This document shows positions 12,134-34,768 of a stretch of DNA of 64,000 nucleotides, piece after piece (position 1 is the stretch's first letter; each line of letters begins with the position of its first letter). The notes beneath the pieces were generated by a model. It was not told the origin of the DNA, ran no database searches, and saw only the letters and a list, made by a program, of their open reading frames with translations. The stretch lies in NCBI GenBank assembly GCA_965116415.1, contig OZ220693.1, positions 1,580,753 to 1,644,752 on the forward strand. Direction: 5' to 3'. The DNA is from Dehalococcoidia bacterium (GTDB lineage: Bacteria; Chloroflexota; Dehalococcoidia; Lucifugimonadales; UBA1123). A program made the translations under genes and the position numbers.

Positions 12134-12643
12134 TCAGGAATCCCCAGCGGCAGAGGCCTGGCGCTGTCTGCTCTCCCGGTGTTTGATGAACGCCATGGCC
12201 TGGCGGACGCCCATGCGGCCGATTGGGCCTGAGGCGTACATGGAGCCGAAGACGACTCCGCGGCTTACGAGGAACTCCATGGGCTGGAGGTAGCGTCCGT
12301 GGGTCTTGTCCTCGGTCCACCACGGGGCGAGGGCGGCCACGGTCTCTTCAGTGACACCGTAGGCAATCGGGAAGGTGAGCCCCTCTTCCTCAGCCATTTT
12401 CGCGGCTGTATCGCGGTCCTCGACGGTCGCGCCGATTACGGTCAATCCCATCTCGTCGAGTTCTTCGAGGCTTCTCTGGTAGGTGGCCAACTGCCGCCTG
12501 CAGTACGGTCACCACTCGCCCCTGTAGAACAGCAGCGCGAGGTAGCGGCTGGGGACCTCACTGGGCAGCGTCATGGTCGAGCCGTCTATGAGGTCGAGTT
12601 TGATCTTGGGGAAGCGGTCTCCCTGTACCAGCTTTTCGGTCAT
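12134..12643 (-). CDS. Peroxiredoxin/redoxin-fold selenoprotein (UxxC), in-frame UGA at 12509-12511
   Basis: ATG at 12643 follows AGGAGG. Translation: MTEKLVQGDRFPKIKLDLIDGSTMTLPSEVPSRYLALLFYRGEW-UGA-PYCRRQLATYQRS, running in frame into ORF 12134..12490. The UGA occupies the first Cys of the WCPxC redox motif. Confidence 0.8.
12490..12504 (-). other. Candidate SECIS-like hairpin ACUGC-AGGCG-GCAGU just downstream of the UGA
   Basis: 5-bp stem and a GG-containing loop, starting 5 nt after the UGA. It is short, so only suggestive. Confidence 0.35.
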
Positions 12644-25968: not shown

Positions 25969-26850
25969 TCAGTTCACGCGCACGTACTTGTCCACGCTCT
26001 GGGCTATTGTAAGTCCGAGATAGATGTCGCCCTGGGAGTCGACCCATAGGCCGTGGGCGTGGCGGTGCAGATTCCAGCGCGCCAGCACCTCGCCGTTGCC
26101 GTCCCGGATGGCGACGCGAGAGGGATTTCCGTCGGCCGCCTGCTCACAGATGTAGAAGAGGCCGTCCGGGCCCTGAGAAATGTCGTTCGGCCCACCCATG
26201 CCGGTCCACTCGGTGATGAACTCGCCTTCGCTGTCGAATATCTGGATGCGGCGATTGGCGCGGTCGCAGACGTAGACCTTCTCGTCTGCATCCACCATCA
26301 GGCTGTGCGGCAGGTGGAACTCACCCGGCTCTGAGCTCCCCGGCGTACCCCAGGACTTGATTAGATCGCCCCCGCCGGTGAACTTGTGAATCCGGCTGTT
26401 TCGATAGCCGTCGGAGACGTAGATGTTGCCGGAGGGGCCCTTCACCATCTCTGTGGGATAGTTGAAAGGCCCGGCGGCGCGGGGGACCATGTCACCGGGT
26501 CCCTCACAGCCGGTGTCGGAGTGAACGCCCCGATCTCCCAGCACCATCAGAGGGCGGCCCTCCAGGGTGTATGACATCGCTACGGAGTCGTCACGATCAG
26601 TCAGGTAAATGACATCGTCGCTGATGCTCATGCCGTGCGGCGAATTGATATTGCCGTGTCCCCAGGCGTCCAGGTAGTTGCCCTCCCTGTCGAAGACGAC
26701 TACGGGCGGGTCGGTCCGCTGGAAGACGTAGAGCCTGTCCTGCGAGTCGGTAGCGACGGTGCTGACTACGTCGAACGCCTCGCCGTCGGGGAGCTTGGGG
26801 AAATCCTGGGCAAGTTCGAAAGTGAGGGTATCTGTGCCAACAGAAGTCAT
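25969..26850 (-). CDS. NHL-repeat beta-propeller, peptidyl-alpha-hydroxyglycine-lyase-like
   Basis: Repeats such as NIYVSDGYRNSRIHKF and KVYVCDRANRRIQIFD, plus GEFHLPHSL. Confidence 0.8.
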   Translation of the reverse strand: MTSVGTDTLTFELAQDFPKLPDGEAFDVVSTVATDSQDRLYVFQRTDPPVVVFDREGNYLDAWGHGNINSPHGMSISDDVIYLTDRDDSVAMSYTLEGRPLMVLGDRGVHSDTGCEGPGDMVPRAAGPFNYPTEMVKGPSGNIYVSDGYRNSRIHKFTGGGDLIKSWGTPGSSEPGEFHLPHSLMVDADEKVYVCDRANRRIQIFDSEGEFITEWTGMGGPNDISQGPDGLFYICEQAADGNPSRVAIRDGNGEVLARWNLHRHAHGLWVDSQGDIYLGLTIAQSVDKYVRVN

Positions 26851-27019: not shown

Positions 27020-27547
27020 ATGGAGACCTACATGACGACTGACATTCCTCACGAGGTACATGGTGACGAACTTCCAAAGCGGGTGACGCGACGCACGGTC
27101 GCGGTTGACTGCGAGCACGTCGAGAAGATGCTGCACAAGGGGACTCGCGAACAGTTCGTGATCTACTGCGACGAGCCGGAGAGGATGGGCGGAGAGGACG
27201 CCTATCCCCCACCGCTGACCTACATCACCTCCGGCATCGGGTTTTGACTGCTTACCCAGTTGAAGCGGTACGCTACAATGAGAAAACTCCCGATCACCAA
27301 GGCCCGAGTCCACGTCGAGATGGACTACTACCTGTCTGGCTCAGTGCTTGCCGGAACCGTCACCAGCGGGGTTACAGAGGTGCGCTCCGAGTTCGAGGTG
27401 ACCTCCGACGCTCCTGAGGAAGAGGTAGCCTACGTCATCCGGCTCGCGAAGCAGGGCTGCTTCGCCGAGAGGCTTGTCGAGACCGCCGTGCCCATCAAGA
27501 GCACGCTCAAGCTCAACGGCAAAGAGGCGACAAGCCGCCTGGAGTGA
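27020..27547 (+). CDS. OsmC-family selenoprotein, in-frame UGA at 27245-27247
   Basis: ORFs 27020..27247 and 27260..27547 are in the same frame. The joined reading is AYPPPLTYITSGIGF-UGA-LLTQLKRYA. That is the position of the first conserved OsmC/Ohr Cys, and the second conserved Cys is present (AKQGCFAERL). Confidence 0.75.
27250..27273 (+). other. Candidate SECIS-like stem-loop after the OsmC UGA
   Basis: Hand-folded pairs: G50-C73, C51-G72, U53-A70, A54-U69, C55-G68, C56-G67, C57-G65, with loop AGUUGAA. Imperfect and close to the UGA. Confidence 0.3.
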
Positions 27548-34210: not shown

Positions 34211-34768
34211 TCACCCCTTGGCTTTCATTAGCCAGGTCTGGTCTCTGGCTGGGCTTGCGAGCCAGGTCTCTACGTCGGACTGGCGCTCGTTGGGGACTTC
34301 GACTCCCAGGCCGTCGGCGAGGCGGGTCATGAAGTTGAACGTGCAGGTGATTAGCACGACCGACAGGATCTGCTCGTCGGTCAGACCGTGCTCCCTGAGC
34401 CTTAAGACGTCGGACTCTTCCATGGCGGCTGGCTCGCGCGTGAGCTTGGTGGCGAAGTCCAGCATGGCCCTCGTCACCGGGTCCAGGTCGGCGTTCCTGT
34501 AGTCGTGCATGACGTGGCTCGCCAACTCGGTATCGTCCGAGACGTTACGGAGAAACTCCCCGTGGGCCATCGTTCAAAATCGGCACTCGTTCTGAACGGA
34601 CACCGCGGTCGCAATCGCCTCTTCCTGCGTTCGAGTGAGCGCAGACGATCCGAACGTTATGGCGTTGTTCAGGTCGTTGACGGCCTTCATCGCGCTGGGG
34701 TTGATCGACATGACGTTGATGACATTCGCCCAGTGCAGCCGTTCGTCAGCTTCGCGTATCCATGACAT
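34211..34768 (-). CDS. AhpD/carboxymuconolactone-decarboxylase-like selenoprotein (CxxU), in-frame UGA at 34574-34576
   Basis: ORFs 34574..34768 and 34211..34570 are in frame. The joined reading is VSVQNECRF-UGA-TMAHGEF, which reproduces the family motif CxxCxxxH with the second Cys replaced by UGA. Confidence 0.8.
34547..34563 (-). other. Candidate SECIS-like hairpin ACGGGG-AGUUU-CUCCGU
   Basis: 6-bp stem including one G-U pair, starting 10 nt after the UGA. Confidence 0.35.

Follow-up and report, generated by a model that had tools for sequence, protein, structure and literature searches.

In-frame stop codons inside conserved genes may end a small protein, mark a decayed gene or be decoded as an amino acid. 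This question is raised by two open stretches on the plus strand, 27020..27247 and 27260..27547, of a 64-kb stretch of DNA from a Dehalococcoidia bacterium (the whole stretch analysed is called the window below). Both stretches are present in a common frame, as had been stated, and are separated by a TGA codon. The original prediction, made from the letters alone, read them as one OsmC-family gene split by an in-frame UGA at the codon of the first conserved Cys. Our analysis supported this interpretation: we give a probability of about 0.9 to the reading that 27032-27547 (plus strand) is one gene of a known OsmC-like selenoprotein family in which UGA 27245-27247 is recoded as selenocysteine (Sec), as judged from sequence comparison.

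Reading frame, start codon and fold

Read from 27020, the plus-strand frame gives METYMTTDIP...YITSGIGF, then TGA, then LLTQLKRYATMRKL...AKQGCFAERL...SRLE and the terminal stop. TGA 27245-27247 is the sole internal stop, and TGA 27545-27547 is the terminal one. The features of the gene are as follows.

27032..27547, plus strand: predicted gene of an OsmC-like selenoprotein, 171 codons (Sec at codon 72) followed by the terminal TGA (27545-27547)
27022..27025, plus strand: Shine-Dalgarno-like GGAG, 6 nt 5' of the conserved start codon, read from the sequence
27245..27247, plus strand: in-frame UGA, predicted U72 in the motif GIGF-U-LL-T (UxxT), assigned by TGA conservation and by Cys in homologues
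27458..27460, plus strand: second conserved Cys, C143 of the 171-residue protein, motif AKQGCFAE, invariant in 32 of 32 aligned homologues

The joined protein had been counted from 27020 as 175 residues, and this part of the prediction was revised. Relatives place the start 71 codons before the TGA (72 codons in three of them), which corresponds to ATG 27032, and the frame is often closed upstream of this conserved ATG, in many relatives two codons 5' of it. Because the start position is conserved and the frame is closed so close upstream in many relatives, 27020 is probably not the start and would lie 12 nt too early. GGAG/GGTGA-type motifs are found in relatives at the same spacing to the conserved ATG.

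A scan of the GC-rich window found 34 cases of two open stretches flanking a TGA. Since the pattern is common in this DNA, it is homology and conservation that argue for a single gene. When the TGA was translated as Cys, the joined protein matched Pfam OsmC (PF02566) with 51.4 bits (gathering score 27.5; E=1.6×10−13), and the match, residues 58-160 and model positions 1-98 of 100, spans the TGA. With U entered as C, the NCBIfam model NF041052, "OsmC-related (seleno)protein", scored 167.7 bits (cut-off 95; E=1.5×10−49) and was covered from position 2 to 144 of 144 by protein residues 23-163. Membership of the joined protein in the OsmC family across the UGA was thereby confirmed. AlphaFold2, given 32 homologues, modelled the protein as a single compact domain (pLDDT 85, pTM 0.80) with the TGA residue at a break between two helical segments, and in a fold search 50 of the 50 best PDB matches were OsmC/Ohr structures, 3cje being first. 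The model and the sequence matches indicate that the 171 residues of the joined protein form one OsmC-fold domain.

The nearest solved proteins by sequence, and in a profile search, were 3cje (the best), 2opl, 9wo1 and 1vla. In all four the first conserved Cys pairs with the U72 column, which is where the UGA had been predicted to lie. The second conserved Cys, likewise predicted to be kept (KQGCFAE), aligns as C143 with KKGCF of 3cje. C143 was also weakly aligned with KAKAGC (Cys125) of E. coli OsmC in a profile-profile alignment of low probability, in which the C-terminal Cys region alone aligned. The two conserved redox residues, U72 and C143, stand at the canonical Ohr/OsmC positions, and C143 is likely the resolving cysteine.

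With the Ohr/OsmC thiol peroxidases (E. coli OsmC 1qwi/1nye; Ohr 1n2f, 1zb9 and 6ecy) the predicted protein shares the fold (Foldseek probability 1.00) and equivalent redox positions, the first being located on a kinked helix and the second within a G-C motif. However, identity to them is 13-17%, and no significant sequence match to canonical OsmC/Ohr entries was obtained. Inspection by eye did not reveal the Arg and Glu found beside the peroxidatic Cys of Ohr/OsmC, and in the P-x-P-L-T-Y segment of the window protein no Glu corresponds to that of the OsmC 'PEEL' motif. YhfA-type members lack both Arg and Glu (PMC8945050). From these sequence features the OsmC-like selenoprotein subfamily looks YhfA-like rather than canonical OsmC/Ohr.

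Conservation of the TGA among relatives

We scanned one genome per species and obtained 136 relatives, from which 80 loci were kept (Dehalococcoidia/SAR202, Nitrospinota, Tectomicrobia and unclassified MAGs). The gene count used below, 83, was reached by adding to the 80 loci the window, L081 and the two tandem copies that occur in L059 and L079. A TGA was present at the homologous codon, between G-x-G-[FQL] and LLT, in all 83 genes; TAA or TAG was found at that codon in none, and none of the genes had another in-frame stop. The TGA is conserved in relatives as distant as about 48% identity. At their 3' ends these genes use mixed stops (TGA 42, TAA 34, TAG 8), so the invariance of the internal TGA does not reflect a stop-codon preference.

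These counts bear on the possibility that the gene is a pseudogene in which a Cys codon (TGC/TGT) mutated to TGA, or in which the TGA is a sequencing error. A single base change does turn TGY into TGA, and public gene callers split the gene and thereby create many C-terminal fragments of 96-100 residues. However, a mutation that inactivated the gene would not be retained between proteins as far apart as about 50% identity, and the same TGA stands in 83 independent genes of several phyla that carry no further stop; frameshifts or extra stops were not found in the relatives. Variability at the three codon positions was 0.20/0.13/0.48 in the 30 codons 5' of the TGA and 0.21/0.14/0.48 in the 85 codons 3' of it. 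As variation is mostly at third positions on both sides, both halves appear to be under protein-coding constraint in one frame. Decay or sequencing error is therefore a negligible explanation, the least probable of those we considered.

A protein search returned full-length relatives of 163-203 residues, ten of which read GIGF-C-LLTQ (P0006, P0007, P0010, P0012, P0016, P0020, P0021 and P0023-P0025) and two GIGF-W-LLTQ. Cys-containing orthologues had been predicted, and these ten full-length homologues carry Cys in the UGA column; the DNA of the five that were examined has TGC or TGT there. The 'W' of one of the remaining two (P0001) is TGA in the underlying DNA (L081) and stems from a gene call with code 4, and the 'W' of the other (P0002) is assumed to be TGA likewise. 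The search also returned about twenty fragments of 96-102 residues, most of which begin at a Met eleven codons past the TGA and a few slightly earlier. These fragments are gene calls truncated by the TGA.

The Cys OsmC-like proteins (P0006, P0007, P0021 and 3cje from Jannaschia sp. CCS1 among them) have the same length, fold and motifs as the window protein, including DEP..GG...P.PL.Y..G.GF-C-LLTQ and AK.GCFAE, and identity to database homologues is 43-58%. They differ in having Cys (TGC/TGT) in place of the predicted Sec (TGA) and in their gene neighbourhoods. In addition, the third base of the Arg codon that corresponds to the hairpin loop G (see below) is free in the Cys proteins.

A second possibility is that the locus holds two small genes, one for a 71-residue product that stops at the TGA and one for a product of 91-95 residues that begins at TTG 27260 or ATG 27278; the two products might together make a split OsmC fold. 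The ATG encoding the Met of RYATM, eleven codons past the TGA, is almost invariant and is used by gene callers. This Met is, however, equally conserved in the single-chain Cys homologues, which identifies it as an internal residue, and the window has no RBS-like motif before ATG 27278. Under the two-gene explanation it would also have to be accepted that the first gene always ends in TGA and never in TAA or TAG, and that LLTQLKRYAT, between the TGA and the ATG, is conserved as protein and matches the Cys homologues. The Pfam, NCBIfam and AlphaFold2 models all describe one domain. When we looked for two independently conserved small genes in the relatives, these showed one frame with a conserved TGA. 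Two separate genes are thus very improbable. Taken together, a Pfam match across the TGA, the TGA in 83 of 83 genes and Cys in the full-length homologues that lack the TGA are far beyond chance, and they favour a single gene.

In two loci of Candidatus Tectomicrobia, two tandem OsmC-like paralogues lie about 600 nt apart (TGA at ~1262 and ~1868 in L059, and at ~5596 and ~6184 in L079). Each paralogue has an in-frame TGA and the same downstream hairpin.

A putative SECIS hairpin downstream of the TGA

Bacterial SECIS elements of the E. coli fdhF type are hairpins within the coding sequence, ~11-12 nt past the UGA, with G-U placed about 23-25 nt from the U of the UGA within a small apical loop. 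The prediction for the window had included a SECIS downstream of the UGA. A candidate lies at the following position.

27260..27278, plus strand: putative bacterial SECIS hairpin, with 5' arm 27260-27267 UUGAAGCG, loop 27268-27270 GUA and 3' arm 27271-27278 CGCUACAA

The hairpin begins 12 nt from the UGA and spans +16 to +34 (U of UGA being 1), positions 16-23 pairing with 27-34, and G24-U25 lie in its small apical loop. It resembles the fdhF-type element in its location within the coding sequence, its 12-nt spacing and its G24-U25 loop. In contrast to fdhF, the stem is shorter (6-8 bp), the loop has three nucleotides (GUA) and a bulged U is not evident. In the window's clade the stem contains an A.A mismatch (27263/27275).

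We aligned 67 distinct sequences across the hairpin. Paired bases were found in 84% of the cells, and double substitutions that keep the pair occurred at four pairs: 18-32 (GC to UA), 19-31 (AU to GC), 20-30 (AU to CG or GC) and 23-27 (GC to AU). The covariation score was 0.249, compared with a mean of 0.068 for shuffled alignments and 0.003-0.110 for controls slid along the alignment. Positions 21-29 (G-C-G-G-U-A-C-G-C) were almost invariant. The wobble bases 21, 24 and 27 vary in 0-1%, whereas third positions vary in about 48% on average. Some pair-keeping substitutions alter the protein (K-R-Y-A-S to A-R-Y-A-H, and R to Q in L080), which points to a constraint on the RNA. The inner two pairs count for little, since the conserved Arg-Tyr-Ala codons partly require them. 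Five Cys homologues had G, C, G, C and U at +24 and form no more than 4-5 of the 8 pairs. The core of the hairpin was part of the minimum-energy fold in 52 of the 67 relatives, and a competing hairpin was found in 10.

The window copy of the hairpin is weak, with about −3.9 to −5.7 kcal/mol; it is the weakest variant, and other clades reach −7 to −9.7 kcal/mol. Single-sequence folding of 27245-27310 and of 27245-27294 gave results no better than shuffled sequences, with z-scores that were not significant. The minimum-energy fold of the window over 48-66 nt past the UGA instead contained the competing hairpin, 27247-27269, which takes in the A of the UGA. We considered whether 27247-27269 is itself a conserved element and rejected it: 34 of the 67 sequences break its pair 6-22, and it covaries less (score 0.099) than 27260-27278 (0.249). 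The two hairpins are mutually exclusive, and the SECIS-type hairpin dominates in most other clades. More speculatively, the two exclusive hairpins could modulate recoding efficiency in the window's clade.

Searches against Rfam gave no match, either for the whole window at the gathering threshold or for 27150-27400 at E≤10. Because Rfam lacks a fitting bacterial SECIS model, this result says little. The prediction of a SECIS was borne out by the comparison of relatives: covariation over 67 of them favours the hairpin at 27260-27278, whereas folding of the window sequence by itself was not significant and favours the other hairpin. The 27260-27278 hairpin fits a bacterial SECIS, and we regard it as putative.

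Probable selenocysteine use, proposed mechanism and known families

If the source organism uses Sec, further genes may be interrupted by TGA at redox positions. Two such genes were found in the window.

12643..12134, minus strand: AhpC/TSA-Redoxin gene, 169 residues, TGA at 12511-12509, motif FYRGEW-U-PYC (UxxC)
34768..34211, minus strand: CMD/AhpD-like 'peroxidase-related enzyme' gene, TGA at 34576-34574, motif NECRF-U-TMAH (CxxU)

The AhpC/TSA gene matched Pfam AhpC-TSA with 64.9 bits, and the match spans the TGA. Its ATG is preceded by AAAGGAGG, and a small hairpin (loop AGGCG) is located 3' of the TGA. From its sequence, 12134-12643 is likely a second selenoprotein gene. The CMD-like gene matched TIGR01926 with 128 bits (cut-off 81.8). 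More than 100 database clusters of this family are C-terminal fragments of 118-119 residues that begin just past the TGA, and the TGA is present in relatives with 70-84% identity over the fragment. In L088-L091 the TGA is kept together with a 7-bp downstream hairpin that shows compensatory changes. One of the CMD-like relatives with TGA is presumably located on the same MAG contig (3,500,881 bp, i.e. 3.5 Mb) as the OsmC-like TGA gene of L006. By the same kind of comparison, 34211-34768 is likely a third selenoprotein gene. Both UxxC Prx-like and CxxU AhpD/CMD-like proteins are among the listed selenoprotein families (PMC1088965).

A branch of the CMD-like family that is 51% identical (L092 1001-1564, P0090; also P0091 and P0093) has a GGC glycine codon at the Sec/Cys position (CRY-G-ALTH). 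At the second redox position, the P0090 branch thus lacks Sec as well as Cys.

At the DNA level the window shares 86-91% identity, and synteny, with Dehalococcoidia MAGs. The genes selA, selB, selC (tRNA-Sec) and selD were found neither in the 64-kb window nor in the ~12-kb loci of the relatives. A tRNA scan of the window and 60 loci detected no tRNA-Sec, and Pfam annotation of 30 further window genes together with tblastn using an E. coli SelD sequence revealed no Sec machinery. The source organism looks like a selenocysteine user, because the window carries the two further TGA-interrupted redox genes. If so, the OsmC-like gene would indicate a selenium dependence of this Dehalococcoidia lineage.

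The remaining explanation is that the UGA is read through without Sec, either by SECIS-independent suppression with Trp or Cys or in a reassigned code (UGA=Trp or Gly). The codon is indeed translated as W in the database entries P0001 and P0002. The 'W' of P0001, however, is the artefact of the code-4 call on a TGA described above, and Cys, not Trp or Gly, occupies the column in homologues. TGA also serves as the ordinary stop of the OsmC-like gene itself, of 42 of 84 homologues and of many high-GC3 genes in the window, so that the genetic code is not reassigned. Moreover, a hairpin that is conserved 3' of the UGA and carries G in its small apical loop is the signature of SelB-dependent recoding, and the two other window genes place TGA exactly at the redox Cys of CxxC-type motifs. 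We consider readthrough without Sec improbable, albeit less so than decay or two genes. The UGA that splits the OsmC-like gene is, on comparative grounds, almost certainly read as selenocysteine.

From the anatomy of the locus and the general bacterial mechanism, we predict that the 27260-27278 hairpin would recruit SelB-GTP-Sec-tRNA(Sec) as the ribosome meets the UGA, and that Sec would be inserted. No hairpin of this kind follows the second UGA, at 27545, which would terminate the protein. Sec72 would take the place of the first conserved (peroxidatic) Cys in the OsmC/Ohr/YhfA fold. By analogy with Ohr/OsmC thiol peroxidases, its selenolate may attack a hydroperoxide or another oxidised substrate. 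The resulting selenenic acid would be resolved by Cys143, which would yield a Sec-Cys selenenylsulfide, and a cellular thiol or lipoyl system may then reduce the latter. This peroxidase chemistry and the reductant are likewise predicted by analogy.

An "OsmC-like protein" (COG1765, UXXT) is among the 15 selenoprotein families that the Sargasso Sea metagenome study was the first to describe (PMC1088965), and the family was kept with exemplar accessions in later reviews (PMC9312934, PMC13188914). The predicted gene of the window is like these OsmC-like selenoproteins (Zhang, Fomenko & Gladyshev 2005; NF041052; COG1765/YhfA-type) in its OsmC domain and UxxT motif (here U-L-L-T), in a SECIS-like hairpin with G in the loop, in the existence of Cys homologues and in its occurrence in marine uncultured bacteria. 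There is no difference of kind: the window copy is from Dehalococcoidia (SAR202-like), and its stem is slightly weakened by the A.A mismatch. The gene is a rediscovery of an already described and curated family. Since this family was reported in 2005 together with its UxxT motif and SECIS, and NCBI has a curated model of it, no new question is opened; the gene would be another case of Sec in place of the first conserved Cys of an OsmC/YhfA-type protein.

The practical consequence concerns annotation. The locus should be annotated as one 171-residue selenoprotein (U72) and not as two hypothetical ORFs or a pseudogene, and the correction extends to the two other TGA-containing redox genes of the window. 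Public protein entries for OsmC-like and CMD-like selenoproteins are mostly C-terminal fragments, and a few have W at the Sec position. The W apparently arises from gene calls with TGA=Trp, as the DNA confirmed for P0001 alone. Truncated fragments and W entries are a systematic annotation artefact for these lineages. A tentative extension, which we think somewhat doubtful, is that this Dehalococcoidia/SAR202-like lineage is unusually dense in redox selenoproteins, with at least three in 64 kb (OsmC-like UxxT, AhpC/TSA UxxC and CMD/AhpD-like CxxU), and that, since databases hold truncated halves, the selenoproteome of these abundant marine or sponge-associated Chloroflexota might be substantially under-counted.

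We also sought a functional partner among the neighbouring genes of the clades compared and found no partner common to them. Neighbourhoods of the OsmC-like gene are conserved within clades only: NHL and DUF1800 genes in the window's clade, carB and an SbcC-like gene in marine SAR202, and an FAD oxidoreductase and a CCG/Fe-S protein in Nitrospinota. The plus strand of the window carries two copies of a pair made up of a DUF1800 gene and, 3' of it, an NHL-repeat beta-propeller gene (16-1239/1382-2473 and 27786-29189/29374-30381). The DUF1800 copies are ~83% identical in DNA, and one DUF1800/NHL pair lies directly 3' of the OsmC-like gene. A further NHL-repeat gene (25969-26850, minus strand) is located upstream of it.
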